This document shows, in pieces, positions 39,184 through 64,000 of a stretch of DNA of 64,000 nt (positions within the stretch are counted from its first letter, which is position 1; every line of letters starts with the position of its first letter). Origin of the DNA: an uncultured delta proteobacterium (GTDB lineage: Bacteria; Desulfobacterota; Binatia; UBA9968); NCBI GenBank assembly GCA_963760795.1, contig CAVXEP010000029.1, forward strand, positions 128,001-192,000, written 5' to 3'. The position numbers and the translations under genes were made by a program. Below the pieces are notes generated by a model, which saw only the letters and a list, made by a program, of their open reading frames with translations, was not told where the DNA came from and did no database searches.

Positions 39184-39615
39184 TTACACAGTTAATAACC
39201 GGTCGAAGAACGATCGATAACTGCGCAGCGCTACGCGCAGTTCCTCCGTCGAAACCTTCTCGGAACGCTGCCAGAGAGGTTCGAGGCGGCTCCTTTGATC
39301 GCTGAAGTTTTGTGCTAAGTGTTGCATAATCTCAGCAACCAACTCATCGGCCAACTCGACGGCCCGCTGTGGTTCGTCTACAAAACTGGTTTGGATATTC
39401 TGCCAGCGCGAGCGGAATTCGTTGCCGTCATCTGTGGCGAGCAGAGGGATTAGTGCTTCTTCGTTTATTCCCCTCATATGTGATGGGCTTCCAATTGCCG
39501 TTTCGGCCGTTGCCATTGATCGGGGGGCCTCATTGGAATGCTCGAAGTCTTTCTCGTTGCTTTCCGCCCGCGCCATATCCCTCGAGGATAGTTTCTTGTT
39601 TTCCGATGCTTCCAT
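39184..39615 (-). CDS. hypothetical protein, homologous to the C-terminal domain of 39630-40247
   Basis: RWQNIQTSFVDEP..ADELV and STEELRVALRSYRSFFDRLL. Confidence 0.75.
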   Translation of the reverse strand: MEASENKKLSSRDMARAESNEKDFEHSNEAPRSMATAETAIGSPSHMRGINEEALIPLLATDDGNEFRSRWQNIQTSFVDEPQRAVELADELVAEIMQHLAQNFSDQRSRLEPLWQRSEKVSTEELRVALRSYRSFFDRLLTV

Positions 39616-39629
39616 TATCAGTACCTCAT

Positions 39630-40247
39630 TCAGTGGTTTGGCTGAACACGCGAGGATTTACCGTTGCGCGTCCGCATTCTTTCGCTATCCGTGCTGCTTA
39701 CATCAGCTTCTTCGGACTGGAGAAGATCGTCAAACAACGCCCGGTAGTGTATGAGCGCCTGCCGTAGCTCTTCGGTGCTCGCGGCCGACCTTTTATTGCG
39801 TTCCGCGATGCGACAGGCGGCTCGAAAATTTTCCACGACTTGGGGATGATTGACCGAGATATCCGCAGCTGACTGCTCGAAATCGGTCACAGGATAGCCG
39901 CACCGGTGCATAACCTCTTGAACCAGACTGTTTGCGTCCGCTAGCGCGCTATCAGGCCGATCCACAAAGCGACTTTGAACCAATAGCCAGTTTTCCTTGT
40001 ACCGCACTCGTTCGCCTTGGGGTAAAGAGACGATGTTGAATTTGCGAACTCGTTCCTCGCGTTTGCTCAGGTCGGCTTCAGCGCTATGTTGACTGTGGTA
40101 CGTGCTAACCGTTTTATCGTACTCAGGTCCGAAACGTTCACGTAACCGCTCGGTTGTTTTACGGCGCGCAAAGTACCAAACCCCGAGGCCAATCAAAATA
40201 ATAAAAGCAAGCGCGATAAGAGCAATAATAATTTGTTGTGCGTCCAT
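39630..40247 (-). CDS. membrane-anchored hypothetical protein
   Basis: N-terminal TM; RLRERFGPEYD, VQSRFVDRP and STEELRQALIHYRALFDDLL. Confidence 0.8.
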   Translation of the reverse strand: MDAQQIIIALIALAFIILIGLGVWYFARRKTTERLRERFGPEYDKTVSTYHSQHSAEADLSKREERVRKFNIVSLPQGERVRYKENWLLVQSRFVDRPDSALADANSLVQEVMHRCGYPVTDFEQSAADISVNHPQVVENFRAACRIAERNKRSAASTEELRQALIHYRALFDDLLQSEEADVSSTDSERMRTRNGKSSRVQPNH

Positions 40248-40290
40248 ATCTCACCTATGTATTAAAAAGTGTATTCGCATTAGATAAACC

Positions 40291-40305
40291 GCAAATATTA
40301 TGCCA
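40291..40305 (-). promoter_or_regulatory. sigma54 promoter
   Basis: TGGCATAATATTTGC (GG-N10-GC), upstream of 40247; palindrome pair at 40345/40376. Confidence 0.85.
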
Positions 40306-40769
40306 CTGACTTGCAGCACTAATACGAGGATAAAAACACCTGGCGTCACATATTTGCAAACAAACGCTGCCTTTCATCGCGAATCTGGGACATGAATAGA
40401 GATGCTGCTGCTCAATGTCATCTATAAAGATGCCGGCAGCTATTTCTATTTCTTGAGGAGTCATTTCACGACGATTAAGTCGCTACGACGAATTCCTTCG
40501 GATGAACTATCCCCCTTGCATAACCATGAGAGACTATCCTCTGCCTTTTACCATCCCGGGGCGACCAGGTGCTGTTGAAGGATCGCTGTTCTTGCTGTGC
40601 GAGTATTCCCAGGCATCACATCTGCGGCACAGCAATCGCAAATCAATGGGGCAACTCGGATTGTCGGTTAATTCCTTTCAGGTAACTAGGAATAATACTT
40701 CCCTCGATTCCGCCGGCTGCTACCACCGAACAAAAGTCCAACAAGTTCGAAGGCATTATTTTTCATTGC

Positions 40770-41090
40770 GCTCGAGGAGATTCGGCTCTCGATGTGGATC
40801 GAAGAGGAGGTGCAAAAGCGTTTCGGTTCGAAACGACAAGCTAAGGAAGAAATTCTCGCCCGCTACACCAGCTTAATCTATATGGGAAACGGCCAGTACG
40901 GGTTTGCCAGCGCAGCGCAATACTATTTTGGCCGGCCGCTGGCGAGGTTCACCGCCAATGACGCCGACCAGGCGGCGCTACTCGCCTGGCATCGCCAAGC
41001 GCCGCGTTACTACGCGCCCATCCCGATGGATACGCAGCGAGTGCTGCGCCGCCGAAATCAAACCCTACGACTGATGGCCGCCAGCCGTGC
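40770..41090 (+). pseudogene. fragment of PBP1-type transglycosylase domain
   Basis: KEEILARY..IYMGNGQYGFASAAQYYFG..AALLA GT51 motifs, then frameshift and truncation; boundaries approximate. Confidence 0.7.
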
Positions 41091-41449
41091 AATACGAACC
41101 GTCGCGGAAAGGAAAAATAACATTGGGAGCGAAAAGGTTGCTGGTCTCCGATCTATAGAGGCTGTGGAGTACTACGTGAACTTTTTGTCAAAGCACCGCA
41201 AGGGGCATTAACGTTTGCCGAAACCGAAGAGCGGTTTGTTGGCAAGTAGCGACAAGGGATTGTTTGCTTATAGGAATCATCTACGCGAGCTTGCGCATGG
41301 TCATGCGCCGATACCCGCGCCGGCGCAGTCGGTGTGCCGGCCACAACAGGCTTGAATGAAAACCGCAGTGGTACCAAGATCCCGACACTATTGAAATTTT
41401 TCGCTCGACTTAAAAAGTTGGTCTCAAAATTGCCTTCTCTGGACCCATT

Positions 41450-41884
41450 ATGACATTTTTAGAATCTACCCGATTTGATCAGACCGAACAGACCATAAAC
41501 CGGATCTTCCAGCCCGACCCGCTTACCCCGTACGATTATCTTAGGACCTCGCGGCGATCGGTGCACCTGGAACCGGAGAAACATTTGATGCATGCGATTC
41601 TGGAGGAAGCGATCAAGACATACCGCTTGCATGTTTCGACCAAATCCAAGCGCGAGCATAGGCTGTTTCTAGAAGCGGAACTCTGGATTATGGACCGTAA
41701 CGATGATTGGCTGTTTTCATTTGAAAATCTATGCGAGGTCTTGGGTTTAGATCCCGATTTCGTGCGCAGTGGCTTGGCTCGTTGGAAAGAACAGCAGGTC
41801 GGCCCTGCGGTGGTGCGGAAGACGCCACGTTACCGGGATCGAAGCGCGCGCCAGAGATCTGCGATAAAGCCTGCTTCCCCATAG
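41450..41884 (+). CDS. conserved hypothetical protein
   Basis: EPEKHLMHAILEEAI...EAELWI...FSFENLCEVLGLDPDFVRSGL pattern; recalled as common in deltaproteobacteria-like genomes. Confidence 0.7.
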   Translation: MTFLESTRFDQTEQTINRIFQPDPLTPYDYLRTSRRSVHLEPEKHLMHAILEEAIKTYRLHVSTKSKREHRLFLEAELWIMDRNDDWLFSFENLCEVLGLDPDFVRSGLARWKEQQVGPAVVRKTPRYRDRSARQRSAIKPASP

Positions 41885-41943: not shown

Positions 41944-41990
41944 GTCCCAAAATTGGGACAGCGGTAATTCAATCGTCCTGTAAATGAGAC
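41944..41990. promoter_or_regulatory. paired candidate enhancer (UAS) palindromes
   Basis: GTCCCAAAATTGGGAC (41944) and GTCCTGTAAATGAGAC (41975), 31 bp apart. Confidence 0.75.
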
Positions 41991-42031
41991 AGAGCGTTAG
42001 GTAAAGTCGTTATAAATTGCCGTCTCATTTT

Positions 42032-42046
42032 TGGCACGTGGATTGC
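42032..42046 (+). promoter_or_regulatory. sigma54 promoter of the NtrC-type regulator
   Basis: TGGCACGTGGATTGC, matches consensus. Confidence 0.9.
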
Positions 42047-42080: not shown

Positions 42081-43440
42081 ATGCAAGGTAATATTCTAGT
42101 TGCCGAAGATGAATTGTTGCCGAGAAAAAATATCTGCCGGGTTCTTGAAGACGAGGGATATCAGGTTCATGAAGCCGCCGACGGGAGCGCGGCTATAGAA
42201 GCAGTCGACAAAAATGATTTAGATTTAATTCTTCTGGATTTAAAGATGCCGGGCGCCGACGGCATGACGGTGCTCAAGCATGTGCGACAAGCATCGCCGC
42301 AGACTCTAGTGCTGATCATGACCGCTTACGCCTCCATCGAAACCTCGGTTGAGGCGCTTCGCCTAGGCGCGCAGGATTATATCCTTAAACCAATCGTGCT
42401 CGATGGCGTGGTGAAGAAAGTGCGCACTTTGATGGAGAATAAGCGGCTTGCTTGGGAAATCCAAACCCTGCGTCGACAACTCAACCGCGACTTCGAGACC
42501 ACCGAATTGATCGGAAATAGCCTCGCCACTGCGGAAATTCTCGAGGTGATCGAGAAAGTGGCGCCGACCAACTCGACCGTTTTGATTAGTGGCGAGAGCG
42601 GTGTCGGAAAAGAGGTGGTGGCTCGCACCATTCATAAGCAAAGCACGCGCAGCGACAAAACTTTTCTGGCGGTTAACTGCAGCGCGATCCCGGAAACCCT
42701 GCTGGAAAGCCAACTCTTTGGTCACGTTAAGGGTGCTTTTACCGGTGCCTCGAATTATCAGGAGGGCTTATTTCAGCGCGCCAACGGCGGAACTATTTTC
42801 TTGGATGAGATCGGCGAGATGCCGCTCATTTTGCAGCCGAAAATTTTGCGCGCCATTGAAGAAAGAGCGGTAACACCCATCGGCGCGGCCAAGCCGCTAC
42901 CAGTCGATGTGCGGATCATTGCCGCGACCAATCGGACGCTAAAGCAAGAAGTCGACGAAGGAAAGTTTCGCGGCGACCTATATTACCGCTTGAACGTCAT
43001 TCACCTTGATGTCCCGCCGCTGCGTGAGCGGCGTGAAGACATCCCGCTGCTGGTCGAACACTTCATCCGGCGCCAGAATAGCGAGCTCAAGAAAAACTAC
43101 CAGGGCGTGGAAAGCAGTGCGTTGAAAGGTCCTCATGTCGCTGCCATGGAAAGGAAACATTCGCGATCTTAATAACGTGCTCGAGCGCGCCATGATTCTC
43201 GGCAATGGAGACTGGATCACGGTCAAAGATCTGCCGCGCTGGGAAGTGCCCGAGGAAGATGCCGACCGCGCCGTCGGCCACGGCCATGATCTCAGGCGAA
43301 CGGTTCGCGCCTTTGAAAAAAGTCATATTGAAAATGTTCTGAAGGAAACCGACGGGGACCGGACCCAGACCGCTGAATTGCTCGGCCTGAGCCGCTCGTC
43401 TTTATATCGCAAACTCGAAGCATTAGGGATTGAATCTTAG
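42081..43440 (+). pseudogene. NtrC-family sigma54-dependent response regulator (REC-AAA+-Fis HTH), +1 frameshift at about 43126
   Basis: LDLKMP, GESGVGKE, GAFTGA, FLDEIGE and DLYYRLNV motifs; removing one base of AAAGG restores LKVLMSLPWKGNIRDL and the C-terminal HTH. Confidence 0.9.
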
Positions 43441-43689: not shown

Positions 43690-43893
43690 TTACCTCTCTA
43701 CCTTATCCACCCAATCGGCGACGCGGCGTTCCGCCTCATCTTTGCTCAGGCCGTATCTTTCCTGGACCTTGCCGATCAATTGATCCCGTTTGCCGGCGAT
43801 CCGATCAAGCTCGTCATCGGTGAGTTCGCCCCAATTTTCCTTGATCTTACCCTTCATCTGTTTCCACTGCCCCGAAATCGTGTCCCAATTCAT
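43690..43893 (-). CDS. csbD: CsbD/YjbJ stress protein
   Basis: MNWDTISGQWKQMKGKIKENWGELTDDEL..GKRDQLIGKVQERYG; GGAGG RBS. Confidence 0.95.
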   Translation of the reverse strand: MNWDTISGQWKQMKGKIKENWGELTDDELDRIAGKRDQLIGKVQERYGLSKDEAERRVADWVDKVER

Positions 43894-43936: not shown

Positions 43937-43951
43937 GCAAAAGATATGCCC
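43937..43951 (-). promoter_or_regulatory. sigma54 promoter of csbD
   Basis: GGGCATATCTTTTGC; palindrome pair at 43992/44023. Confidence 0.8.
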
Positions 43952-44047: not shown

Positions 44048-44689
44048 CTATCGGAGCGAGCGGCGAAGAAGCACAAACGTAATGATCCCAGCGGCGCTTA
44101 ACCCGACCAGAAGCCCAATGTCCGTCCAATGACTATACTGTAACGCGGCCAATAGTTGGTCGCCAACCACGACAGTGGTCAGAGTGCCGGGTATGAGTCC
44201 TATGAAAGATCCGATGATGAAGGTGCTGAACCGGATGCCGAGCGCGCCCACGAACATGTTAACGACTGTAAATGGCGCCACTGGCAACATGCGTATCACT
44301 ACGACCGCGAAGATACCGCCACCTTTAAGTTTGGCGGCGATAGTTTCGAAGCGCTGGCGTTGCGTTCCTTGGCTGCGCGGTGGTCCATAGGTGGCGCCAA
44401 ACCAGAAAGCCATGGCTGCGGCGAGAATTAATCCCGTCAGACCGTAGACTGCCGTGCGCCACGGACCGAAAATACCAACGAAGGCCAAGGTTAGCATCGG
44501 TCGTGGAAATAAAATTAACGAGGCGGCTACATAGCTTGCAACAATGATCAAGGGAGCGGCAGGATGTCTTTCTAAAGGTTCACTCCAAAGCCGGAGCTGG
44601 TCTGCGTCCATTTTTTGTAGAGGGCTCCAGTGCCACAAGGCGATTAAGAAAAGTGCCGTCGCCAGAACTACAAAAATATTACGCGACAT
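44048..44689 (-). CDS. DedA/VTT (TVP38/TMEM64) membrane protein
   Basis: IFGPW, IRMLPVAPFTVVNMFVGALGIRF..FIIGSFIGLIPG. Confidence 0.88.
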   Translation of the reverse strand: MSRNIFVVLATALFLIALWHWSPLQKMDADQLRLWSEPLERHPAAPLIIVASYVAASLILFPRPMLTLAFVGIFGPWRTAVYGLTGLILAAAMAFWFGATYGPPRSQGTQRQRFETIAAKLKGGGIFAVVVIRMLPVAPFTVVNMFVGALGIRFSTFIIGSFIGLIPGTLTTVVVGDQLLAALQYSHWTDIGLLVGLSAAGIITFVLLRRSLR

Positions 44690-44850: not shown

Positions 44851-45846
44851 TTACTTTAACCCGAGCGCGGTCGTCGTTTTTTCATCCAATTGTCCGGTCA
44901 CCGCGATATTTTTCGCCTTCTGAAAATTGCGCAATGCCTCCTGCGTGCGCGGACCAAAAACTCCATCCGGTTGGCCGGTCTGGTAGCCAAGGTCATTTAA
45001 CTTCGATTGCGCCTGACGCACTTCCTGCGTGCTAGCGGGCTGCGAGTCACGCATTCCTGCATCGTTGCGCGTATCGCTGCGTCTCGCGCTGCGCCCGCCC
45101 TGGTTCGCTTCCAAAGCCCGCTCTGTCGCTTCCGCTTGCCACATATTAGTCGTCACATCGATTTTGGTCGCCTTGCGGGTTGTCTTATCGAAATCGAGTT
45201 GCACTTCGTAACTGTGATCGGCTTTGACGATTTCCCACTCGGCATAATCGGGCTTATCGCTGTTAACCGACGTGATTTTCCACCCCATTTTTTCCAGCTC
45301 GCGACGGTAGACGTCCTTGTCTTGTCCCGGTTTTAACGCTTGCTCGAGCTGTTCTTTGCCTTTAGTCCAATCAGCTCTGCGGTCGCGGTCGCTAAACCGA
45401 GCATCGCCTCGACCCATGGCGGCTACCTTGGTTCCTTTCAGAGCTTTTTTAGTGGCATCCGCTTTCCACATGTTGGTGGTTACGTCGACTTTGCTAGCTT
45501 TATTGCCTTTATCAAAATCGATCTGCACTTCGTAGCTCTGATCGCCTTTTACAATTTCCCACTCGGCGTAATCGGATTTGTCGCTGTTCACGGCTGTGAT
45601 CAGCCAACCCGCTTTCTCGAGCTCCTTGCGATAAAAATCCTTGGATTCACCCAGCTTTAAATTTTGTTGCAACACTTGTTTCTGTTTGTTCCAGTCGGCG
45701 CTGCGGTCGCGGTCGCTATAACGTCCGGCTGGAGTGCTTGGCACACTGTCGCTGCGCTGAGCCCACGCGAGTTGTGGCGACAAAGCGAGAATTCCGGTTA
45801 ACACCGCGGACCCGCTCATCTTCAATTTCCTTACTGAGATTTTCAT
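44851..45846 (-). CDS. exported protein with two about 100-aa tandem domains and a C-terminal peptidoglycan-binding domain
   Basis: Signal peptide ending AWA; duplicated SDRDR..DYAEWEIVK..SYEVQxDFDK..DVTTNMW; AQSKLNDLGY..DGVFGPRTQEALRNFQ. Confidence 0.88.
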   Translation of the reverse strand: MKISVRKLKMSGSAVLTGILALSPQLAWAQRSDSVPSTPAGRYSDRDRSADWNKQKQVLQQNLKLGESKDFYRKELEKAGWLITAVNSDKSDYAEWEIVKGDQSYEVQIDFDKGNKASKVDVTTNMWKADATKKALKGTKVAAMGRGDARFSDRDRRADWTKGKEQLEQALKPGQDKDVYRRELEKMGWKITSVNSDKPDYAEWEIVKADHSYEVQLDFDKTTRKATKIDVTTNMWQAEATERALEANQGGRSARRSDTRNDAGMRDSQPASTQEVRQAQSKLNDLGYQTGQPDGVFGPRTQEALRNFQKAKNIAVTGQLDEKTTTALGLK

Positions 45847-45909: not shown

Positions 45910-45924
45910 GCAACCGTCGTGCCA
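45910..45924 (-). promoter_or_regulatory. sigma54 promoter
   Basis: TGGCACGACGGTTGC, upstream of 45846. Confidence 0.9.
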
Positions 45925-47201: not shown

Positions 47202-47216
47202 TGGCATGCTGTTTGC
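47202..47216 (+). promoter_or_regulatory. sigma54 promoter of the ferritin-like gene
   Basis: TGGCATGCTGTTTGC; palindromes at 47034 and 47054. Confidence 0.85.
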
Positions 47217-47993: not shown

Positions 47994-48070
47994 CCTCCCT
48001 CTACTGATAAACATTTTAGGTAGCGACCTGCATCATAACAATAGCAAATTTATCGATGAGGTTTTATTAT

Positions 48071-49405: not shown

Positions 49406-49433
49406 AGCGTTATCCTTTCCATTGTCGTGTAGG

Positions 49434-49568
49434 TTACTTTAGCGCTAACGATTTTCCCACGAGTATCAGGGCGACGCCGCCGATCATCCCGGCGCCGGCA
49501 AGCAGCGGTGGAATCGCAATGGATTCGCATTTCTCCTCTGTGCTTGATCTTGTTGTTCTGCATCCATG
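49434..49568 (-). pseudogene. remnant of a small membrane stress protein (DUF3185-like C-terminus)
   Basis: Strong AGGAGGT RBS and ATG, but out of frame with SIAIPPLLAGAGMIGGVALILVG. Confidence 0.5.
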
Positions 49569-49606: not shown

Positions 49607-49621
49607 GCAACACACATGCCA
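49607..49621 (-). promoter_or_regulatory. sigma54 promoter (leftward member of a divergent pair)
   Basis: TGGCATGTGTGTTGC. Confidence 0.85.
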
Positions 49622-49772
49622 GTGCGATAGCGGAATTCACGACGCCCCATAGTTATTCACAGGGGGATATAGCGCATTGATGTCCCAAAACCGCGAAGGA
49701 GAGAAAGAAGCATTCCAAGCTTTGGGACACGGCGGGTTGTGTTCACACACTGTATGAAGGTGAATTATTATC

Positions 49773-49787
49773 TGGCATATGAGTTGC
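49773..49787 (+). promoter_or_regulatory. sigma54 promoter (rightward member of a divergent pair)
   Basis: TGGCATATGAGTTGC; shared palindromes at 49682/49713. Confidence 0.85.
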
Positions 49788-49848: not shown

Positions 49849-50187
49849 TATGGATTATGCAGAAGGTGTTGCTCAAGGCAGAATGGGTCGTAGGGAAGAT
49901 GAGCGGGACGACATCGGCCGCAAAGTAAGCAATGCGGCTTCTGAAGTGCGCGCCGGGATCACTAATTTCGTCGACGGCAGTTAAGCAAAAAATACCAAGC
50001 TGATGCGGTTCGCAAGATGAGTGATACCGCGTGCGAAGTCACCGATCAGGTCAGGGGATACATCGAGGATCGCGGAATCCGGGGATTGACGGATGATGTT
50101 ACCGATTTGATTCGCCGCTATCCGATGCCTGCTTTGTTATGTGGAGTCCTGATCGGTGTGTTATTGGCGCGTCCACGGGGAGATTAA
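49849..50187 (+). pseudogene. YqjD/ElaB (DUF883)-like tail-anchored protein, frameshifted
   Basis: GGAGG-ATG at 49849; C-terminal LIRRYPMPALLCGVLIGVLLAR is reached only via frameshifts near 49976-49995. Confidence 0.7.
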
Positions 50188-50189
50188 CC

Positions 50190-50642
50190 ATGGCTGCATT
50201 GAAGCCTACACCCGATCACGCCAGTTGGTCCGACCTGATCGCGGGAATTGTGACAGATGCAACGCAGCTGTTTCACAAAGAGGTCGAACTGGCCCGACTA
50301 GAGATTGGTAATGATTTACGTAACGTCAAAGCGCTGCTAACGGGAATCGTAATTGGTGGGATACTCGCAGTTTTAGGTTTAGGCTTGCTTTGCGTTGGGT
50401 TGGCGTTGGCACTTTTTACCTATACGACATTGCCGCAATGGGCTTGCTTCGCTGTGGTTGGCGGAGCGATGCTGGTGGCCGGCGTCTGCTTTATTGCCGC
50501 GGCTAACCGAAGCAAAAAGAAAGTCGATCTAATTCCTCAGCGGACCGTTGAGGCTGTGAAGGAGGATATCGGATGGATCACATCGACAATCAGGACATCG
50601 AACGCAATCTCAAAGACCGCGAACAAACTCGAAAGGCGCTAA
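50190..50642 (+). CDS. YqjE-like ('phage holin family') membrane protein
   Basis: LFHKEVELARLE, two TM segments, PQRTVEAVKED. Confidence 0.85.
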   Translation: MAALKPTPDHASWSDLIAGIVTDATQLFHKEVELARLEIGNDLRNVKALLTGIVIGGILAVLGLGLLCVGLALALFTYTTLPQWACFAVVGGAMLVAGVCFIAAANRSKKKVDLIPQRTVEAVKEDIGWITSTIRTSNAISKTANKLERR

Positions 50643-51130
50643 CGCAAAAGTTAGAGACGCTGGAGACACGTATGCAGGACAATATCGAGCAAGTTAAAGA
50701 GTCGGTGCGACATAGCACAGATTTAAAATACCAAGTGGGCAAGCGTCCCTGGGTAATGTTTGGTTTATCAATAGTGTTGGGTGGTGTGGCCGGGCGCCTG
50801 TTCATGGGTAATCGTCAATCGTTAAGTGCGCGCTCGCGCTCGGAAATCGAGGATATCCTACACAAAGCGAGCGACGCATCAAGCAAAAGCTTTCAAACCT
50901 TGGCCGACAATGTAAACCTCGACCAGTACGCTAAGCATTTTAGTCTAATTAAGAACGCCTCCATAGGCGCGATGACTTCGCTTGCCGTCGAATTGGCCCG
51001 TCGTGTCGTGCCCGCCATCCTAACCCAAATCGATAAGTACTCTAAAAGCACAAACCTCAACAACACCACCGAGAAGGTTCGAGAAGCGGACGAGCAATTA
51101 CAAGATCGATTCAGAACCTCGGTTCAGTAA
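50573..51130 (+). CDS. DUF3618/YqjK-like protein
   Basis: IERNL..TRKALTQKLETLE coiled coil, then RPWVMFGLSIVLG TM. Confidence 0.7.
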   Translation: MDHIDNQDIERNLKDREQTRKALTQKLETLETRMQDNIEQVKESVRHSTDLKYQVGKRPWVMFGLSIVLGGVAGRLFMGNRQSLSARSRSEIEDILHKASDASSKSFQTLADNVNLDQYAKHFSLIKNASIGAMTSLAVELARRVVPAILTQIDKYSKSTNLNNTTEKVREADEQLQDRFRTSVQ

Positions 51131-51324
51131 GTTCGTGATCTGGTCAAAGCTTTCGCGTGGGTCTTAGCAGAAAAGCGCACCCAATGGGGAAAGCGTCCAG
51201 AGTTTGCGAACCAGTGCAGTGTCGCATCGGCAAACCCCTTGCTGCGACAATTATGGCGCACTTCTATAGTGTTCGCAGCGAGGGCTAATTGCGCGCTGAC
51301 CGTTTGTTAAACGCACCTTTTAAC

Positions 51325-53139
51325 ATGGCGCATACGCATGACATAGAAGATCGTAATTCCATGGGGGCCGAGAGCGGCAGATTGCCGGGCATGTGGTTTT
51401 TTCTCGGCGCGGCTCTTTTGGTTGCAATTCTTTATTGGGCCCAGGCGATTTTGATTCCTGTGGCCCTAGCTATCCTCTTAACCTTTTTGCTTGCGCCGAT
51501 AGCAGGGCAGTTAGAGCGCTGGGGAATCTACCGCGGTTTGTCGGTATCTCTAGTCGTTTTGCTGACGGCGCTTTTGCTGGGCGGCATGATTTGGCTTGCC
51601 GCGATGCAAATTCGCAATCTGGCCGATGAGTTGCCGCATTATCGTGCCAACATGCGGCAAAAGATTAGCGATCTGCGCGAGCTGCAGAAAAGCAGCGCGC
51701 TGGATCGTCTTAACGATATGTTCGGGGAGGTGCGCGGCGAATTATCTAAAGACGACAAAACCAGCGTGCCGAAGCCATCTGCCGAAGCCGCCCCCGGCGG
51801 CCCCGCTGGCCAACCGTTCTTTTGGGAATCGTTAAAGCAACCGATTGCCAGCGCCGGTCTGGTCTTGCTGCTGTTGATTTATATGCTCGCGCAGCGCGAA
51901 GAAATGCGTAATCGGCTCATCCGGCTATTTGGCTATGGCAATCTAACGATTACCACCCACGCGCTCGAGGAAATGGGCCAGCGCGTCAGTAGCTATTTAT
52001 TAACCCAATTGGCGATCAATAGCAGTTTTGGAATGATGGTCGCTGTCGCGCTAGCCCTGATCGATCTACCCTACGCATTTCTCTGGGGTTTTCTTGCGAC
52101 TCTGTTGATTTTTGTACCGGTGATCGGTTTCTGGATCGCCGCCGCATTGCCGACAGTGCTCAGTCTGGCGGTGTTCACGAACTGGGGCTGGTCGTTGTTT
52201 GTGCTCGGACTTTTTTTAGTACTCAAGACCGTCATTAACACGATTCTTGAACCGTTGCTTTACGGCAAAAGCGCCGGGGTGTTGCAAGTGCCGCTTTTGA
52301 TCATGCTGGCATTCTGGACCTGGCTCTGGGGACCCATGGGCTTGATTCTGGCCACGCCATTGACTGTCTCGCTGCTGGTTTTTGCCAAGCATGTGCCGCA
52401 GTTGGAATTCCTGAATTTACTAATGAGCGATCAGCCGGCGATGGCATCCCAGATCAGCCTCTATCAGCGCATGCTTGCGCTTGATTATGATGAGGTGTCG
52501 GTAATATGGGAGAATTTCCTGCGTGATGAACCGCCTGAAACGGCTTATGACGCGCTGCTATTACCGGCGCTCAGTTATGCCAAGGCGGATCGCCGGCGCG
52601 GCCGTTTGACGGTGCGACAGGAAAAATTCATTTTCGCCACCGCGCAGGCTTTACAGGAAGAGCTGAACAGCGCTGGAATCAGCCAGAAAGCGAAGTTGCC
52701 GCCGGCTCATAGGACTCGCATCATCGGTTGTCCGGCAGAGGACGATGCTGATGAACGCGCGTTGTTCTTCCTCTGCGACCTGCTCGATCCGCTACGCTTC
52801 GATTGCGAGGTCGTTGCCGATGCGAAGCTTGCCGCTGAAACCATCGCCGGTCTTGGCCCACGCGAGGCCGTGCTGGTGATCGCCGTCCTGCCGCCCGGCG
52901 GCATTGCGCGGAGCCGTTCTCTCTGCAAGCAGCTGCGCGCGAGATTCGCGCACTTGAAGATTCTCGTCTTATGTTGGCAATGTGCCGGCGATCAGTCCCA
53001 AGTTCGACAGAGTATTTTGGCCGCCGGCGCCGATTGGGTGTGCTTTAATTTACTCGAGACACGCGCACAAATCGCCAATCTCGCTGGAGATGCGGTCGCG
53101 CTATCTAGCAGCCTGGATAAAGAAGCCGTTGAGGGTTAA
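51325..53139 (+). CDS. AI-2E family transporter with C-terminal cytoplasmic (B12-binding-like fold) domain
   Basis: IPVALAILLTFLL, EPLLYG and FWTWLWGPMGLILATPLTV motifs; start uncertain. Confidence 0.88.
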   Translation: MAHTHDIEDRNSMGAESGRLPGMWFFLGAALLVAILYWAQAILIPVALAILLTFLLAPIAGQLERWGIYRGLSVSLVVLLTALLLGGMIWLAAMQIRNLADELPHYRANMRQKISDLRELQKSSALDRLNDMFGEVRGELSKDDKTSVPKPSAEAAPGGPAGQPFFWESLKQPIASAGLVLLLLIYMLAQREEMRNRLIRLFGYGNLTITTHALEEMGQRVSSYLLTQLAINSSFGMMVAVALALIDLPYAFLWGFLATLLIFVPVIGFWIAAALPTVLSLAVFTNWGWSLFVLGLFLVLKTVINTILEPLLYGKSAGVLQVPLLIMLAFWTWLWGPMGLILATPLTVSLLVFAKHVPQLEFLNLLMSDQPAMASQISLYQRMLALDYDEVSVIWENFLRDEPPETAYDALLLPALSYAKADRRRGRLTVRQEKFIFATAQALQEELNSAGISQKAKLPPAHRTRIIGCPAEDDADERALFFLCDLLDPLRFDCEVVADAKLAAETIAGLGPREAVLVIAVLPPGGIARSRSLCKQLRARFAHLKILVLCWQCAGDQSQVRQSILAAGADWVCFNLLETRAQIANLAGDAVALSSSLDKEAVEG

Positions 53140-53249: not shown

Positions 53250-53264
53250 TGGTACGAAGTTTGC
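53250..53264 (+). promoter_or_regulatory. sigma54 promoter
   Basis: TGGTACGAAGTTTGC, upstream of 53371. Confidence 0.8.
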
Positions 53265-57733: not shown

Positions 57734-58795
57734 ATGACAATCCCAACTGAGCCGATCGGCAGCATCCCAAGACCTCTTAAGCTGATTGAGGCGATCGCCA
57801 CACGAGGAGTCAATGATCCGTCATTGGAGACGCTCTTTGAAGACGCGAGCCGCGACACCATCGAGCGCTTCGAGGCGACGGGATCGCCCGTCATCGCCGA
57901 CGGCGAGCAAAGAAAATATCACAACTTCTGGACGTACAGCGTGCAGGGATTGCCCAATGCGGCGGAGGACGGCTTTAAGATACCTTTCGTCGCCGGTCAC
58001 ACTCGCCGGATGCTGCGCTTGACCGATGGTCCTTTCCGCTACAAGACCTATGCGGACAGCTACCTGGATTTGGCGCTACGCCATGCCCATGTGCCAGTGA
58101 AGCAGGCGGTCATCTCGCCTTCCGCCCTCAGTCTTATGTATCCGCCCGACGAGATCCCTGGCTATCCGCGCGGGCAGTTCATCGACGACCTGCTCCGCGA
58201 GCACGAGACCGAGGTGCGCGCCTGCTTGCGCAAAGGCGCGCACAAAGTGCAGATCGACTTCACGGAAGGGCGGCTGGCGCTTAAGATCGACCCTTCCGGG
58301 CATCTCTTGCAGAGCTTTATCGATCTGAACAATCTGGCGCTGGCACGCTTCTCCGCCGCAGATCTTCAGCGCATCGGCGTGCACACATGTCCCGGTGGCG
58401 ACCGCGATTCGACCCACAGCGCGGATGTCGATTACGCCGAGCTGCTGCCGCAACTGTTCGAGTTGACGGCGGGCAACTTTTACATCGCGCTGGCCGGGGA
58501 AACGGACCATGTCCGGGTCCTGAAGATCATCCGCGACCACATGAAGGCGGACCAGCGAATTTTTGTTGGCGTTATCGCACCGATCGATGCGCGTGTCGAG
58601 ACAGCCGAACAGGTTCGGGATCGGGTCCTCGAGGCGGCCCAATACATTCCGCTCGAGCAATTGGGCACCACCGATGACTGCGGTTTTGCACCGTTCTGCG
58701 ATGACACTTCGACGACCCGCGACACGGCCTTTGCAAAGATCCGGGCGCGCGTAGAGGGCACGGCGCTTGCAGCGGAAATTCTCGGAGGTCATTAA
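57734..58795 (+). CDS. cobalamin-independent methionine synthase-like single-barrel (Meth_synt_2) protein
   Basis: IGSIPRP, DGEQ, VQIDF, GVHTC and DDCGF motifs. Confidence 0.85.
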   Translation: MTIPTEPIGSIPRPLKLIEAIATRGVNDPSLETLFEDASRDTIERFEATGSPVIADGEQRKYHNFWTYSVQGLPNAAEDGFKIPFVAGHTRRMLRLTDGPFRYKTYADSYLDLALRHAHVPVKQAVISPSALSLMYPPDEIPGYPRGQFIDDLLREHETEVRACLRKGAHKVQIDFTEGRLALKIDPSGHLLQSFIDLNNLALARFSAADLQRIGVHTCPGGDRDSTHSADVDYAELLPQLFELTAGNFYIALAGETDHVRVLKIIRDHMKADQRIFVGVIAPIDARVETAEQVRDRVLEAAQYIPLEQLGTTDDCGFAPFCDDTSTTRDTAFAKIRARVEGTALAAEILGGH

Positions 58796-60825
58796 TGGCG
58801 GCGACAGACCACGAGGATGCGCGGCTTCGTTCCGTTGCCCTGCAAAACGCCCGGAGCATCGTACTTGCGCGCCGGCGCGCAGAGGAAGTGTTGCGCAAGC
58901 AGTCAGAGTGGCTGCGCGTCACGCTTTCCAGCATTGGCGATGGGGTGATCAGCACCGACGCCGAAGGCCGTGTGAGCTTTATGAATGGCGTGGCCGAGGC
59001 CTTAACGGGTTGGACGCGCAATGAAGCGATGGGGCAAGCGCTTGATGCGGTGTTCCGCATTGTCAACGAGTCAACCCGCGAAGGCGTGGAAAATCCGGCT
59101 ATGCGGGTACTGCGCGAAGGCGCCATTGTCGGGCTGGCGAACCATACTCTCCTCATTGCCAAAGATGGCACGGAACGACCGATCGACGACAGTGCCGCGC
59201 CGATCTGCAATGAGAAGGGGAGCATCGCTGGATGTGTACTGGTCTTTCGCGATGTTACCGAGAGGCGCAGGGCGGAAGACGCCCTGCACCGTAGCGAACG
59301 CGAACTCAGCGAGTTCTTCGAAAACGCCAACGTCGGCCTGCACTGGGTCGGCCCAGACGGGATCATCTTGCGGGCGAACCAGGCCGAACTCGATTTGCTC
59401 GGTTACAGCCGCGAGGAATACGTCGGCCGCCATATCGCCGAGTTTCATGTCGATAAACCCGAGATCGACAAGATGCTCGACTGCTTACTGCGCGCTGAGA
59501 ACCTGCATGAATACCCGGCGCGAATGCGCTGTAAAGACGGATCGATCCGGGACGTGCTGGTAAACTCCAGCGGGTTTTTCGAGAACGGCGAATTCATTCA
59601 CAGCCGTTGCTTCACCCACGATATCACCGAGCGCAAACGGGCCGAACAAAAACTCACCGACGCCAACCGCCGCAAGGACGAATTTTTAGCGACGTTATCG
59701 CACGAGCTGAGAAACCCGCTGGCGCCGATTCGCAACGCCGTGCAAATCTTAAAGACCATCAGCCCCGCCACGCCGACGCTCGAGTGGTGCCGGGATTTGA
59801 TCGATAACCAGGTCGCCCAGATGGCGCGGCTGATGGAAGATCTGCTCGACCTCACCCTTATCTCGCGTAATTCGTTGGAGCTGCGCAAACAGCCGGCGGA
59901 TTTGGGCGCGGTGATCGAAGGTGCGATCGAAACCAGCCGGCCGCTGATCGAAGCGGGCCGGCACCAGCTCACGGTCAATCTGCCGGCGCAAAAAATGATG
60001 CTAGATGGCGATCCGGCCCGCCTTATTCAAGTGTTCGCCAATTTATTGAATAACGCGGCAAAGTACACGGAACCTGACGGCGAGATCCACGTAAACGCGG
60101 AGCTCGTCCGCCGAGCGGAGCAGGACGGTTTACAGGACGTGGTTGTCTCGATCAAAGATAGCGGTATCGGCATTGCGCCTGACCTGCTGCTGCATCTTTT
60201 CGAAATGTTTTTTCAGGCCGATCGCAGCAAAGAACGCCATTACGGCGGTTTGGGAATCGGCCTTACGCTGGCGCTTCATATCGTTAAGCTGCACGGCGGG
60301 GGTATTGAAGTTAACAGTGAAGGACTCGGCAAGGGCAGCGAATTTGCCGTGCGCTTGCCGTTAGCTAAAGAATCCGGCGAGCAGGACCAGGGCAGCGTCG
60401 GCGCCGGCAATGAGGCAAATCCGCGTGCGCGGCGTTTGTCCAGGTCGGTATTAGTTGTGGATGACAACAATAATCAGGTCGAGAGCATCGCCATGCTGCT
60501 GAAGATTCTTGATTGCGAAGTGCGCGCGGCTAATGACGGTGTAAGCGCCCTGGAAGCACTGAAAGAGTTCATTCCTGAATTTGCCCTGATCGATATTGGT
60601 TTGCCGGGTATAGATGGTTTTGAGCTGGCGCGGCGTATCCGCAAATTCGACGAATATAAAAATATCGTGCTTATCGCGCAAACCGGCTGGGGAAGGGAAG
60701 AGGATCGTATAGAATCGCGCCAAGCAGGTTTTGATTATCACCTGGTAAAACCACTGGATTTCCAGTTGCTCGAAAGGATATTGACGGGAGCGGAGCCGCC
60801 GACCTTGAGTCAAGCTCGGGTTTAA
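58795..60825 (+). CDS. cytoplasmic PAS-PAS hybrid histidine kinase
   Basis: SIGDGVISTD, VFRDVT, HDIT, SHELRNPL and C-terminal REC; TAATG overlap with the upstream gene. Confidence 0.93.
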   Translation: MAATDHEDARLRSVALQNARSIVLARRRAEEVLRKQSEWLRVTLSSIGDGVISTDAEGRVSFMNGVAEALTGWTRNEAMGQALDAVFRIVNESTREGVENPAMRVLREGAIVGLANHTLLIAKDGTERPIDDSAAPICNEKGSIAGCVLVFRDVTERRRAEDALHRSERELSEFFENANVGLHWVGPDGIILRANQAELDLLGYSREEYVGRHIAEFHVDKPEIDKMLDCLLRAENLHEYPARMRCKDGSIRDVLVNSSGFFENGEFIHSRCFTHDITERKRAEQKLTDANRRKDEFLATLSHELRNPLAPIRNAVQILKTISPATPTLEWCRDLIDNQVAQMARLMEDLLDLTLISRNSLELRKQPADLGAVIEGAIETSRPLIEAGRHQLTVNLPAQKMMLDGDPARLIQVFANLLNNAAKYTEPDGEIHVNAELVRRAEQDGLQDVVVSIKDSGIGIAPDLLLHLFEMFFQADRSKERHYGGLGIGLTLALHIVKLHGGGIEVNSEGLGKGSEFAVRLPLAKESGEQDQGSVGAGNEANPRARRLSRSVLVVDDNNNQVESIAMLLKILDCEVRAANDGVSALEALKEFIPEFALIDIGLPGIDGFELARRIRKFDEYKNIVLIAQTGWGREEDRIESRQAGFDYHLVKPLDFQLLERILTGAEPPTLSQARV

Positions 60826-60944: not shown

Positions 60945-61739
60945 TTAGGGGTTTGCGCCGGAGCTTTTTTCGCGCTGTGAAAGCGGACTCTGCGCGTGAC
61001 GATGACCCCGTTCATATCCGGCGCGAAACTCGCGCGCATCCCACATATCCGGAAAGTGCATTTTCAAATAATTCTCGGCTTCGATGTAACCCTTGCCTCG
61101 ATTGGGCAGGTCTAACGCAGCTTCGAAACCTTTGCGATAAGTCGACTCGATCTGCACGAAATTTTCGGACGAGTCGTAGGACTCCGCTTCCGCATCGCGC
61201 AGGCCGATCCACCATTTCTCCCGGGCGGCATCGATACTTTCCGCCCCGGCATCAATCAGAATTTTTCGCCCGATTTCGAGTTGATCCTCGTCGTCGGTGC
61301 GAAAGATCAGAATCGTTCGACCTTGGCGTAGCGCATCCTCGTAAAAGTACAGTTCATCGCGCGGCAGTCCTTCGGTTAAGGAATATTCCAGGGCGCCGCC
61401 TGCGGCGGCGCCTCCGGCCGCACCGACGGTGCCGGTGATTGCCGCAGTTATGAAACCGATCGCCAGCACCGGCCCGACCCCAGGGAATAGCAGCGAGGAT
61501 AGGACCATGCCAAGCGGCAAACCGCCCGATAAACCGAGTGCGCCGCCGACTACTCCACCGATGACCTTGCCCATTCCGGGCTGCTCGCCGTCAGTCGTAG
61601 GAACGGTGTTTTGCTCGCCATTTTTCTTATCTGGCGTTAGTAGACTTAATTGATCTTTGGACAGGCCTGACCTGAGAAGCTCGTTTAGGGCCTTTTCAGC
61701 AGCTCTGGGCGAGGAAAATATTCCGCTGGCGGTTTTCAT
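60945..61739 (-). CDS. general-stress-type membrane protein (YflT/Gsp17M-like N-terminus, glycine-zipper TM)
   Basis: GIFSS..AEKALNEL..G, PGVGPVLAIG and FYEDALRQG. Confidence 0.75.
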   Translation of the reverse strand: MKTASGIFSSPRAAEKALNELLRSGLSKDQLSLLTPDKKNGEQNTVPTTDGEQPGMGKVIGGVVGGALGLSGGLPLGMVLSSLLFPGVGPVLAIGFITAAITGTVGAAGGAAAGGALEYSLTEGLPRDELYFYEDALRQGRTILIFRTDDEDQLEIGRKILIDAGAESIDAAREKWWIGLRDAEAESYDSSENFVQIESTYRKGFEAALDLPNRGKGYIEAENYLKMHFPDMWDAREFRAGYERGHRHAQSPLSQREKSSGANP

Positions 61740-61768: not shown

Positions 61769-61783
61769 GCAATGAGGGTGCCA
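61769..61783 (-). promoter_or_regulatory. sigma54 promoter
   Basis: TGGCACCCTCATTGC, about 30 nt upstream of the start at 61739. Confidence 0.88.
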
Positions 61784-62020: not shown

Positions 62021-62035
62021 CGGAACAGCGATTGC
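62021..62035 (+). promoter_or_regulatory. sigma54 promoter
   Basis: CGGAACAGCGATTGC; palindrome-like ATCCCAATTCTAAGAC at 61988. Confidence 0.7.
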
Positions 62036-62067
62036 ACCAACTCTTCATAAATTATGGAGGTGCAATC

Positions 62068-62259
62068 ATGGCGCGATACGGCAAAAGCGCGGGGCAGAAA
62101 GTTAAGCGGGCGATGCATGAGCGTAAAAAAGGCACTTTGAAGAGCGGGCGTTCCGGCAAAACGGTGAAAAGCCGAAAGCAGGCGATCGCCATCGGCTTGT
62201 CCGAAGCACGTCGTGCCGGCGGCAAGGTACCGGCAAAAAGACCGCGAAAAAAGAAATAG
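62068..62259 (+). CDS. DUF6496 small basic protein
   Basis: KVKRAMHERKKGTLKSG..VKSRKQAIAIGLSEAR; GGAGG RBS. Confidence 0.9.
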   Translation: MARYGKSAGQKVKRAMHERKKGTLKSGRSGKTVKSRKQAIAIGLSEARRAGGKVPAKRPRKKK

Positions 62260-62423
62260 CTATTAATAATTCAATTCGGAAAAATTTCGCGTCAGATCGG
62301 TTTAGCTGTCGAGATATCGCTGATATTAAAGGCTATCTCTTGGTGGATGTTGGCTGGGCCGAAGTTAAACCTTCGCCTGGCGACGGAGAGTCTCTATGTT
62401 CCGCCGTTTTAAGTGTCGGCGTG

Positions 62424-62669
62424 TCACGCTCGCCCGAGTGGATTTATTATGGGGTTGTCGAGTGTTGGAATGTCAGGCGCAACCAGCGGCCCTGAAATGA
62501 TCTCTAATGATAATCCCCGTCCCTTTGCAAACTCCGGCTCTTCTCCTGAGATATATTGAGCTTGAGTCTCTCCGAAGACCCATACAGCGCCGTCCTCTTG
62601 AAGCAACACGACCTGCGGTTGTGGATCGGCGGCAAACTTAACCCAGTAATAACCATGCGGTCTCGGCAT
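62424..62669 (-). CDS. small hypothetical protein
   Basis: ATG-initiated 81-aa ORF (GYYWVKF...ISGPLVAP); no recognised family. Confidence 0.5.
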   Translation of the reverse strand: MPRPHGYYWVKFAADPQPQVVLLQEDGAVWVFGETQAQYISGEEPEFAKGRGLSLEIISGPLVAPDIPTLDNPIINPLGRA

Positions 62670-62857
62670 GATTAAAGTTTAGCGCAGCCACGAACGAGAA
62701 CAACCCCTTGTGAAAAATAAAAGGACTCGAGCTAGAACCTAGCGCGGCAAAGCCGTAACCAGTAAGAAGGAGGGAAATTCCCCGAGGAAACACGAGGTTC
62801 GCAAAGTTCTGAGTATGTTCCAATTACCAATTCTAAATTAGCATTTTTCGCACTGCC

Positions 62858-62872
62858 GCGATGAGGGTGCCG
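62858..62872 (-). promoter_or_regulatory. possible sigma54 promoter
   Basis: CGGCACCCTCATCGC, 13/15 identical to the 61769 promoter. Confidence 0.55.
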
Positions 62873-63167
62873 AAAGTTTTCCCACGCAGTGTTCTACACG
62901 TTGACGCCGCCGCCTTTAGCTGAACCTGGATTCCCATGTTCGATCAATGATGAAGGTTTACCCTATCTGACAAAACTGCGGTTCACTCTCGGGTTCCAAT
63001 ATTACCAGTATAAGAAACATCTGCTTCCGGCTCACTTTGTTCTGAATATAGATCACCGCTCGATGAGATAATTCCCAGGGGCGAGACATCTTCAGCGCGT
63101 TGGCGCGCCGGGGTGTTATTTGCCCACGCATTTTACTACTTGCTAGGCTGATCAGAGAAAAGCGGCG

Positions 63168-63182
63168 CGGCACGATTATTGA
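63168..63182 (+). promoter_or_regulatory. possible sigma54 promoter of katE (-12 GA variant)
   Basis: CGGCACGATTATTGA; palindrome TTCCCAGGGGCGAGAC at 63072. Confidence 0.6.
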
Positions 63183-63288
63183 TCATAACACAGTGGTTGG
63201 CGCGCAAGGACTAAGCCCTGCGTCCAGGGTGGGCGATGCCGTCCGCGTAGAATTGATTAACCGCAACATAAAATGAGGGATATTTATA

Positions 63289-64000
63289 ATGGCAAAAGAA
63301 CGTGGCAGCCGTAAAACTCAATCGAATCGCGAGCAAAGCGCGCAATATGGCGACCAAACTGTAACCGTCGGCGCCGGCGGCGAAACCCACCAGACCGCCG
63401 ATGACGGTGCCCCTGTATTGACCACTCAACAGGGCACTCCGGTGTCGGACGACCAAAACTCGCTGAAGATCGGCGCCCGCGGGCCGACGGTGCTGGAAGA
63501 TTTTCATTTTCGCGAGAAAATTTTTCACTTCGATCACGAGAGAATTCCCGAGCGAGTGGTCCATGCCCGCGGTTTCGGCGCCCATGGGTATTTCGAAAAC
63601 TACGAATCCCTTGCCGACGTGACCAAGGCGGATCTTTTCCAGCGCGCCGGTGAGAAGACTCCCGCTTTCGTGCGTTTCTCCACCGTCGCCGGCAACAAGG
63701 GCTCAGCGGACTTAGCGCGCGACGTGCGCGGTTTTGCCGTCAAGCTCTACACCCAACAAGGCAACTGGGATATCGTCGGCAACAACATTCCAGTGTTTTT
63801 CATTCAGGATGCCCTCAAGTTTCCCGATTTCGTACATTCTGTCAAAGAGGAACCGGATCGCGGCTTCCCCCAGGCGGCGTCAGCGCATGACAACTTTTGG
63901 GACTTTGTTTCGCTATCGCCGGAGAGCACCCACATGCTTTTGTGGGTTATGTCGGACCGGGCGATTCCGCGTTCGCTGCGTTTCATGGAAGGCTTTGGCG
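63289..64000 (+). CDS. katE: large-subunit catalase HPII (3' end runs off the window)
   Basis: Not in ORF track. Manual translation gives [39 protein letters not shown] and [12 protein letters not shown]. Confidence 0.97.

Follow-up and report, generated by a model that had tools for sequence, protein, structure and literature searches.

Which sigma factor drives a set of stress-protection genes in a bacterium that carries them in one compact block is the question raised by the right-hand part of a 64,000-nucleotide stretch of DNA from an uncultured delta proteobacterium (Desulfobacterota; Binatia; UBA9968; assembly GCA_963760795.1, contig CAVXEP010000029.1, positions 128,001 to 192,000; hereafter the window). 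CsbD, Dps, OsmY/BON, YqjD/E and catalase-type genes belong to RpoS, SigB or EcfG regulons in model bacteria, and the RpoS, SigB and EcfG general stress responses are textbook cases of sigma-factor replacement. An original prediction, made from the letters of the window alone, proposed that in the region 39184-64000 such an output is driven by RpoN (sigma-54) through an activator encoded in the island itself. This held for the promoters, for rpoN and for the enhancer-binding protein, and a palindrome common to most of the promoters was found in addition; it was not supported for the catalase, and the hybrid kinases are linked to the activator by synteny. On sequence evidence, we consider it likely that a stress-protection block of approximately 40 kb is controlled from about 14 sigma-54 promoters by one autoregulated NtrC-type activator. 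The block would span the window from 39.2 to about 80 kb (G000:C29 ~167-208 kb), the region being its left part. G000 denotes the genome holding the window (6.58 Mb in 35 contigs, completeness 89%, contamination 6%), in which the window is G000:C29:128001-192000; other G and L numbers denote the genomes and loci compared.

Sigma-54 promoters carry GG and GC doublets 10 nucleotides (nt) apart within -24/-12 elements resembling TGGCAC-N5-TTGCW. The sequences were searched with a strict pattern, TGGCAY-N5-TTGC, and with a position weight matrix (PWM) that was trained, avoiding circularity, on 37 sigma-54-like sites outside the island in a non-coding context before an open reading frame (ORF). PWM matches were listed from a score of 10 and counted from a score of 14.5 with the GG doublet required. 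Ten main and two weaker box positions had been claimed for the region, and the described sequences were present at all twelve. Of the ten main boxes, nine come close to the sigma-54 consensus; the tenth (62021) is weak, yet conserved. Seven match the strict pattern (40291-, 42032+, 45910-, 47202+, 49607-, 49773+ and 61769-), with 43937- and 53250+ showing one deviation each from it. The two weaker boxes, 62858- (o81) and 63168+ (catalase), did not stand: neither has a counterpart in the related genome G003 and both fall below the PWM listing threshold. A PWM match at 54642- was rejected for lack of the GG doublet.

The original prediction implied that the boxes would be enriched over a shuffled background and conserved in related genomes, and both were found. 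Across 100 dinucleotide shuffles of the window, strict sites averaged 0.37 and never exceeded 3, with none of the shuffles reaching the seven observed. Genome-wide, 89 strict sites occur in 6.58 Mb, with seven in the 24.8-kb region representing an approximately 21-fold enrichment. The PWM (≥14.5 with GG) gave 139 sites in the genome, eight of them in the region, where chance would give 0.52 (Poisson P 9e-8); a further four strong boxes fall in the 18 kb to its right, past the window, into which the block continues. The region is the genome's densest 25-kb cluster of PWM sites. A further remark, that no boxes had been noticed in the left 38 kb of the window, agrees with the strict sites (0 in the left 39 kb); the PWM gave one site there at ≥14.5. 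The boxes are oriented toward genes, and the distances from the first box base to the ATG were 58, 49, 58, 78, 60, 55, 77 and 44 nt. The strict pattern was also present before an ammonium transporter gene and a PII-type gene (the latter recognised by its first residues), serving as internal positive controls, since ammonium transporter and PII genes are canonical sigma-54 targets.

The boxes are retained in the diverged intergenic DNA of two sister species. In intergenic alignments the -24/-12 elements stand out as islands of identity and the five spacer bases vary among species. The island in G003 is syntenic, its proteins sharing 62-94% identity, and that of L037 is compact, comprising orf143, orf205, the activator gene (product 93% identical), csbD, the peptidoglycan-binding (PG-binding) gene, dps, a DUF3309 gene, an AI-2E gene, a MetE-like gene and the kinase gene HK2. 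These observations support reading the ten main boxes, the weak 62021 box included, as real, conserved sigma-54-type promoters.

A perfect 16-bp palindrome, GTCCCAAAATTGGGAC (41944..41959), precedes the -24 box of the activator gene by 88 nt and is a candidate activator-binding site (upstream activating sequence, UAS). It is conserved amid diverged flanks in 4/4 aligned genomes (G000, G003, G019 and G022) and also occurs in L037. Among the 7-mers of the 190-nt stretches before the nine strong promoters, GTCCCAA and TGTCCCA were the most enriched, with 7 occurrences each compared to ~0.15 expected, counts that are somewhat inflated because one divergent promoter pair has a common upstream region. 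Sites were scored over the 12 outer positions of GTCCCA-N4-TGGGAC with a cut-off of at least 9 of 12. Eleven of the 14 promoters of the island have a site scoring ≥9 upstream, in most cases between -60 and -107 relative to the box. Such a score was reached at 8 of the 78 strict sites elsewhere and in 248 of 5000 windows of 200 nt drawn at random. L037 had such scores at 6/7 sites, all at -86 to -98, and G003 at 9/18 sites. Orthologues of the activator with ~65% identity (G017, G010 and G020) have GTCCT-N6-RGGAC-type palindromes in their own promoters, and the palindrome was found at 1 of 10 promoters beside 60%-identical activator paralogues. Because the candidate palindrome, lying at about -86 to -107 from the -24 box at most promoters, is common to the activator's own promoter and most of the others in the island, it points to one autoregulated NtrC-type activator with a regulon, although the fit is incomplete.

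Between the palindrome and the activator -24 box there is also a second inverted repeat, TGAGAC-N32-GTCTCA (41975-42030), with an A+T-rich core, conserved in 4/4 aligned genomes. This repeat may be a bending-protein or repressor site.

The activator gene (42081..43440, +) encodes an NtrC-family enhancer-binding protein (EBP) with a receiver, a sigma-54 AAA+ domain with GAFTGA and a Fis-type helix-turn-helix (HTH) (Pfam Response_reg 5e-29; Sigma54_activat 3e-70). Its translations show GAFTGA, Walker motifs and the Fis-type HTH, and the protein has the domains that define group I of the NtrC family (receiver, AAA+ with GAFTGA, C-terminal HTH). It belongs to none of the named equivalogs (AtoC, NtrC, NtrX, ZraR, GlrR and others), scoring below all curated NCBIfam cut-offs; the best NCBIfam matches were AtoC, NtrC, NtrX and ZraR, the highest being AtoC with 467 of 714 bits. 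The nearest solved structure is 4l4u, of the NtrC family, with 1ny5 and 1ojl as the other best PDB matches. Sigma-54 activators were represented in G000 by at least 51 scored matches (109 first-look candidates), with similar numbers in congeners and 5-17 in the sister family.

In this assembly the activator ORF ends after 363 codons at a 1-base break near 43128, and the HTH carries on in the +1 frame. In its orthologues one frame stays open over 457-474 codons, and the version in G003 encodes 452 amino acids (aa). Contigs of three independent RNA-library runs (Illumina) are without one base at 43128. The same contigs are without one base each at 49978 and 50000, where a YqjD-like gene splits, and show indels at 53335 and 53351 that probably break the 5' end of o95. 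The pattern suggests homopolymer-type assembly errors; in all likelihood the frame breaks arose in assembling this genome, and at most they are private to the strain. The activator, which had been expected to need repair before use, probably needs none, as the break is missing from the orthologues and from the independent RNA-library contigs.

The distribution of boxes among csbD and dps genes was compared inside and outside the genus. Dps orthologues of G000, G002 and G003 had the box in 3/3 cases and distant Dps-type genes of the genus in 5/5, compared to 0/1 for a paralogue of 72% identity in G003 and 0/7 for the Dps orthologues of the sister family (61-64% identity). Of 24 genus genomes searched, 17 yielded csbD; the 16 searched from two sister families yielded none. 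Within the genus, 19 of 30 csbD loci were preceded within 230 nt by a box of the form TGGYAY-N5-(T/C/G)TGC, compared to ~0.009 expected per window; the count was 17/27 without the two G000 rows and the G004 row, and 11/30 for the stricter T(T/C)GC form. Outside the genus but within the phylum, boxes were found at 5 of 29 csbD loci. From these counts inside and outside the genus, the predicted sigma-54 wiring of csbD and dps is a trait of the genus with scattered parallels elsewhere. The box-less csbD paralogues L096, L104 and L106 (G008, G014 and G019) have a conserved G+C-rich hairpin, GAGGCGACCGC...GCGGTCGCCTC, directly before the ribosome-binding site, which may be the terminator of the upstream gene or a leader structure.

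The promoters and their genes are as follows, from left to right. The predicted sigma-54 promoter of the orf205-orf143 operon (40291..40305, -; TGGCATAATATTTGC; strict; PWM 14.6) has a palindrome-like GTCCCAGATTCGCGAT at -86, and both the box and the upstream site are kept in G003 (L023 4389-) and L037 (9287-). The operon (39184..40247, -) consists of orf205 (39630-40247), a membrane protein, and orf143 (39184-39615), which are 62-77% identical in G003 and L037; neither gave anything above cut-off in Pfam or NCBIfam. A monofunctional transglycosylase gene (40502-41211) is present as two overlapping ORFs, split. An extra candidate sigma-54-like box, overlooked in the original prediction, lies before orf144 (41450-41884) at 41419..41433 (+; TGGTCTCAAAATTGC, TGGTCT-N5-TTGC). 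Its counterpart in G003, TGGTATCAAATTTGC (L023 9277+), stands directly before the orf144 orthologue; the sigma-54 call at 41419+ is uncertain, with the -12 element just 17 nt from the ATG. The promoter of the activator gene (42032..42046, +; TGGCACGTGGATTGC; strict; PWM 19.4) is retained in the four aligned genomes, with one spacer base different in G022. That of csbD (43937..43951, -; GGGCATATCTTTTGC, GGGCAT-N5-TTGC; PWM 18.6) is retained in G003, G022 and L037 with a variable spacer, and csbD itself (43690..43893, -) encodes 67 aa (Pfam CsbD 7e-22).

The box at 45910..45924 (-; TGGCACGACGGTTGC; strict; PWM 20.1), kept in G003 and L037, precedes a unit of a secreted protein with a C-terminal peptidoglycan-binding domain (44851-45846, -; Pfam PG_binding_1 4e-18) and a VTT/DedA-type membrane protein (44048-44689, -; Pfam VTT_dom 7e-23). 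On the other strand, the box at 47202..47216 (+; TGGCATGCTGTTTGC; strict; PWM 20.3) is retained before the orthologues in G002, G003 and L037. Its unit encodes a Dps-like ferritin (47262-47876, +; Pfam Ferritin 1.5e-26; PDB 8w1d 'DPS-like protein' 2e-72), a BON-domain protein (48056-48448, +; Pfam BON 3e-10) and a hemerythrin-domain protein (48542-49072, +; Pfam Hemerythrin 5.5e-14). A divergent pair of promoters follows. The first (49607..49621, -; TGGCATGTGTGTTGC; strict; PWM 20.5; G003 box L023 18986-) precedes a small gene (~49390-49566), and the matching unit in G003 encodes a small membrane protein and a DUF3309 protein (5e-23). The second (49773..49787, +; TGGCATATGAGTTGC; strict; PWM 18.4; G003 L023 19167+) precedes a YqjD/ElaB-like unit. 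The shared upstream region of the pair (49682..49743) carries palindrome-like GTCCCAAAACCGCGAA and GTCCCAAAGCTTGGAA, and G003 has GTCCCAATCTTCGGAT in the same place between its divergent promoters.

The 49773+ unit begins with a tail-anchored YqjD/ElaB-like protein (from 49850, +) that is split by two 1-base indels here and is intact in G003 (122 aa), where its YtxH and DUF883_C matches are both sub-threshold (Pfam E ≤ 1). It continues with a PF07332 membrane protein (50139-50642, +; Pfam Phage_holin_3_6 3e-23), which we take to be YqjE-type, and with o185 (50573-51130, +), a member of the gene run 49850..53139. An AI-2E family transporter (51289-53139, +; Pfam AI-2E_transport 4e-43) is possibly also included. 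The candidate promoter of o95 (53250..53264, +; TGGTACGAAGTTTGC, TGGTAC-N5-TTGC) has a low PWM score (10.6) and is conserved in G003 as TGGTACGAGGTTTGC. o95 is annotated as an ORF at 53371-53658 (+), its true start being probably near 53304, and belongs to no protein family in Pfam or NCBIfam. Approximately 1 kb between o95 and the kinase gene HK1 (53655-54700), holding o82 and o104 as doubtful ORFs, is not matched in G003 and is a possible insertion or decayed gene.

To the right of the kinase genes, the box of o264 (61769..61783, -; TGGCACCCTCATTGC; strict; PWM 17.2) corresponds in G003 to a box at L024 10764- with GTCCCATTATTCGGAA at -104; o264 (60945-61739, -) has a YflT-like N-terminus that is sub-threshold (E 0.015). 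The weak, conserved sigma-54-like box at 62021..62035 (+; CGGAACAGCGATTGC, CGGAAC-N5-TTGC) reads CGGAATACCAATTGC (CGGAAT-N5-TTGC) in G003 and precedes a DUF6496 gene (62032-62259, +; 1.3e-25) whose ATG is probably near 62068. For the ORFs without a named family, NCBIfam yielded none and Pfam at E ≤ 1 gave only the sub-threshold YflT and YtxH/DUF883_C matches. The window ends within a gene for a KatE-type large-subunit catalase (5' part 63289..64000, +; full length 710 aa; Pfam Catalase, Catalase-rel and Catalase_C). Beyond the window, the block holds the rest of the catalase gene and genes for a DUF748 protein, a PLD-type enzyme, a glycogen debranching enzyme, a second PG-binding protein, topoisomerase IB and a second BON protein.

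Sigma-54 control of katE is not supported, as the 63168 box is not conserved in G003 and lies below the PWM listing threshold of 10. At ~63010-63060, ~250 nt upstream of the catalase gene in G000 and G003, there is a conserved block, CTGTTCTGAA.ATAGATC ... GCGAGACA, which may be a non-sigma-54 regulatory site for katE.

The G+C content of the region 39184-64000 is 48-54% (a single 2-kb bin reaching 60%) compared to 55-59% across the left 36 kb. No tRNA genes were found in the window from 30 to 64 kb and in the next 20 kb in a search for the borders of a mobile island. The parts of the island are patchily distributed over the genus, a comparison confounded by fragmented assemblies: the G019 contig stops at the activator, and G002 has dps and HK1, with no activator orthologue found in that genome.

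Sigma-54 sites also occur elsewhere in the genome. The second-densest sigma-54-like cluster lies outside the window at G000:C29:307707-328314 (L062 and L063; 7 sites in 21 kb), with two EBP genes (C29:322491 and C29:328698). GTCCCA was found upstream of five non-island strict sites, four of them on contig C29 (274882, 311720, 318548 and 328314) and three inside the second cluster. A strict box precedes a gene for a 207-aa fusion of an S30AE domain ('sigma-54 modulation protein', ribosome hibernation) with a cold-shock domain (G000:C13:189782-190402; L155), and both fusion gene and box recur in G017 (L025:15455-16075).

Upstream signalling was sought among the kinases of the island. HK1 (54826-57663, +) is a hybrid kinase of dCache-PAS-HisKA-HATPase-REC architecture with no sigma-54 box, and HK2 (58795-60825, +) is a hybrid kinase of PAS-PAS-HisKA-HATPase-REC architecture; between them lies the gene for a MetE-like protein (57734-58795, +), which HK2 overlaps by one base (Pfam and Atlas for all three). 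The MetE-like gene and HK2 lie downstream of the activator in 3/3 genomes with enough flank (G000, G003 and L037), and HK1 has orthologues in G002, G003 and G022. Unlike its paralogues, the activator has no adjacent kinase gene. HK1 and HK2 are candidates only for the input to the activator, on the basis of synteny. The self-contained character claimed for the island is not supported, none of the three genomic Hpt matches being on the island contig and the link between kinases and activator being one of gene neighbourhood. A near-perfect 18-bp palindrome, TGTCCCAAAATTGTGACA (54675-54692, 150 nt before HK1), was considered and rejected, being not conserved in G003 and not followed by a sigma-54 box.

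The genome encodes the sigma factor that the boxes call for: a single match to Sigma54_DBD (212 bits) identified rpoN, an ORF of 491 aa carrying the RpoN box. The other sigma factors in G000 are RpoD, a 509-aa RpoD-like group-2 factor and an RpoH-like factor, recognised by its RpoH box. No rpoS equivalog scored above the cut-off in this 89%-complete genome, the best match (294 of 379 bits) being RpoD itself.

Metatranscriptome libraries from three rhizosphere and soil studies yielded contigs that matched, at 95-99% identity, the activator, csbD, the PG-binding gene, dps, the BON and hemerythrin genes, the YqjD-like unit, o95 and o264, which is compatible with expression in soil. The stretch 46.0-47.3 kb was uncovered in all four runs and the kinase block in X1 and X5 and for the most part in X2, which was not read as silence. 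Contig ends near some promoters were left unused, several of them running into adaptor sequence.

Several observations weigh against a stress regulon under a single island activator. The catalase gene, the most classic stress marker of the set, is without a conserved box. Three of 14 promoters in G000 miss the palindrome cut-off of 9, as do 9 of 18 sites in G003, those of dps, csbD, the PG-binding gene and o95 among them; other activators may therefore share the block. The palindrome was first noticed on these very sequences, making its test not fully independent, and the activator gene is frame-shifted in this assembly. On the input side, no Hpt domain was found in the island, the three Hpt matches of the genome all being on another contig, and the kinase operon is without a sigma-54 box, lies 12 kb from the activator and is preceded by a palindrome-like site that is not conserved. 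The group-2 RpoD-like factor could run a parallel or sigma-S-like route. The RNA evidence consists of assembled contigs, which are uninformative on start sites, and RNA libraries can hold DNA.

These points bear on three other explanations. The boxes could be chance matches or non-productive sigma-54 sites, with transcription starting from sigma-70-family promoters, and E. coli is known to have intragenic and non-productive sigma-54 sites. The enrichment, orientation and spacing of the boxes, their conservation in diverged intergenic DNA and their pairing with an upstream palindrome make this very improbable. With real sigma-54 promoters, the block could instead be a mosaic served by several activators, leaving the one encoded in the island in charge of its own gene and a few nearby ones. 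Such an arrangement would fit the at least 51 EBP matches in the genome, the low palindrome scores at 3/14 and 9/18 promoters, dps and csbD in G003 included, and the presence of boxes before Usp, HPF-like and envelope genes elsewhere in G000. It is harder to square with a palindrome at 11/14 island promoters compared to ~5-10% of controls, with its fixed position at -86 to -98 at 6/7 sites in L037 and with the lack of a second EBP gene in the 40-kb block among Pfam-scanned ORFs, and we regard it as unlikely.

The single activator could also control a regulon for a specific condition, such as desiccation or osmotic stress, stress from iron or oxidants, or the onset of a resting state, with one cue sensed by the dCache and PAS kinases. 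dCache and PAS are ligand-type sensor domains, the output is dominated by envelope and membrane proteins, the catalase lies outside the sigma-54 set, and the group-2 sigma factor could carry a truly general response. CsbD, the Dps-like, BON, DUF3309, YqjD/E-like and DUF6496 proteins are, on the other hand, a multi-stress set of RpoS, SigB and EcfG regulons, and the wiring reaches many csbD and dps paralogues across the genus. A regulon confined to one such condition is, in our assessment, quite unlikely.

Under the preferred reading of one autoregulated activator for the whole block, sigma-54 RNA polymerase would wait as a closed complex on each -24/-12 box. Phosphorylation of the receiver would lead the block-encoded, autoregulated NtrC-family activator to bind GTCCCA-N4-TGGGAC, centred ~85-100 nt upstream of -24, where it would oligomerise and use ATP for promoter opening. 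The output would comprise CsbD, the Dps-like ferritin, BON, hemerythrin, small membrane proteins (DUF3309 and YqjD/YqjE-like), PG-binding envelope proteins, DedA and several proteins of no known family. The likeliest input would be the co-conserved PAS-PAS kinase HK2 with its translationally coupled MetE-like partner, and the dCache kinase HK1 would be the second candidate. Sigma-54 polymerase cannot fire without an ATP-hydrolysing activator, which gives a very tight off-state and switch-like induction. For this island the sequences show the promoters with their enrichment and conservation, the common upstream palindrome, the domains of the activator and an rpoN gene; we infer the sigma-54 dependence, the feeding kinase, the signal and the 'general' character of the response.

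The predicted system resembles NtrC-family regulons (NtrB-NtrC at glnAp2, ZraS-ZraR and AtoS-AtoC, with NtrC1 and NtrC4 of Aquifex and ZraR as relatives of solved structure) in the receiver, AAA+ (GAFTGA) and Fis-type HTH of its activator, in a palindromic enhancer ~100 nt upstream of a -24/-12 promoter and in the autoregulation predicted here. It differs from them in having no adjacent kinase gene, in having about 14 promoters in one block and in an output of general-stress-type proteins rather than nitrogen, zinc or acetoacetate genes. That output is similar to those of RpoS (Gammaproteobacteria), SigB (Bacillota) and EcfG-NepR-PhyR (Alphaproteobacteria), which share CsbD, Dps-type, BON/OsmY-type, YqjD/E-type and DUF3309 proteins, and genes in the neighbourhood are also of this kind (catalase and, past the window, glycogen debranching, PLD-type and topoisomerase IB genes). 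The island has the multi-stress protection protein set of a general stress response, with the catalase nearby without a supported box. Its promoters are of the sigma-54 type and not those of a dedicated sigma-70-family factor, and control would be by ATP-dependent activation at enhancer promoters and not by sigma-factor replacement.

No paper was found on sigma-54 control of a CsbD/Dps/BON set in the full texts searched, regulon supplements being outside that scope. Within the wider delta-proteobacterial group, DVU3305 of Desulfovibrio vulgaris Hildenborough is, like the island activator, a two-component sigma-54 activator, for whose targets Kazakov et al. (2015, PMC4641369) use the label 'General stress response, transmembrane transport'. 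In the available part of that paper the DVU3305 regulon consists of two operons only, with no CsbD/Dps/BON set or multi-promoter island described (PMC4641369). Sigma-54 regulons predicted in silico across phyla include universal stress proteins (COG0589) in Planctomycetia and signalling genes in Desulfobacteria (Carrera-Reyna et al. 2025, PMC12316311); the main text of that paper has 0 mentions of 'general stress', CsbD, catalase or Dps, and a dedicated activator or enhancer is not described there (PMC12316311). Taken together, the sequence evidence partly supports the original interpretation, with the island as a real, conserved and probably enhancer-dependent sigma-54 regulon of the NtrC type that has its own activator and a general-stress-response output.

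A broader proposal is that in this genus a general stress response has been moved wholesale from a stress sigma factor to sigma-54 and a dedicated autoregulated NtrC-type activator, with GTCCCA-N4-TGGGAC as its binding site and a PAS hybrid kinase plus a MetE-like co-sensor as its input; we advance this tentatively and consider it somewhat doubtful. If true, enhancer-dependent sigma-54 control would be a fourth, unrecognised general-stress architecture beside RpoS, SigB and EcfG, and control of a fundamentally different logic could govern the same stress output. The sister family, with its Dps orthologues without the box, would provide a natural case of promoter rewiring, and the compact system of promoter, enhancer and activator could be rebuilt in E. 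coli despite the uncultured host. Such a response would also explain in part what the great number of sigma-54 activators in soil bacteria are for, this genome alone having at least 51.

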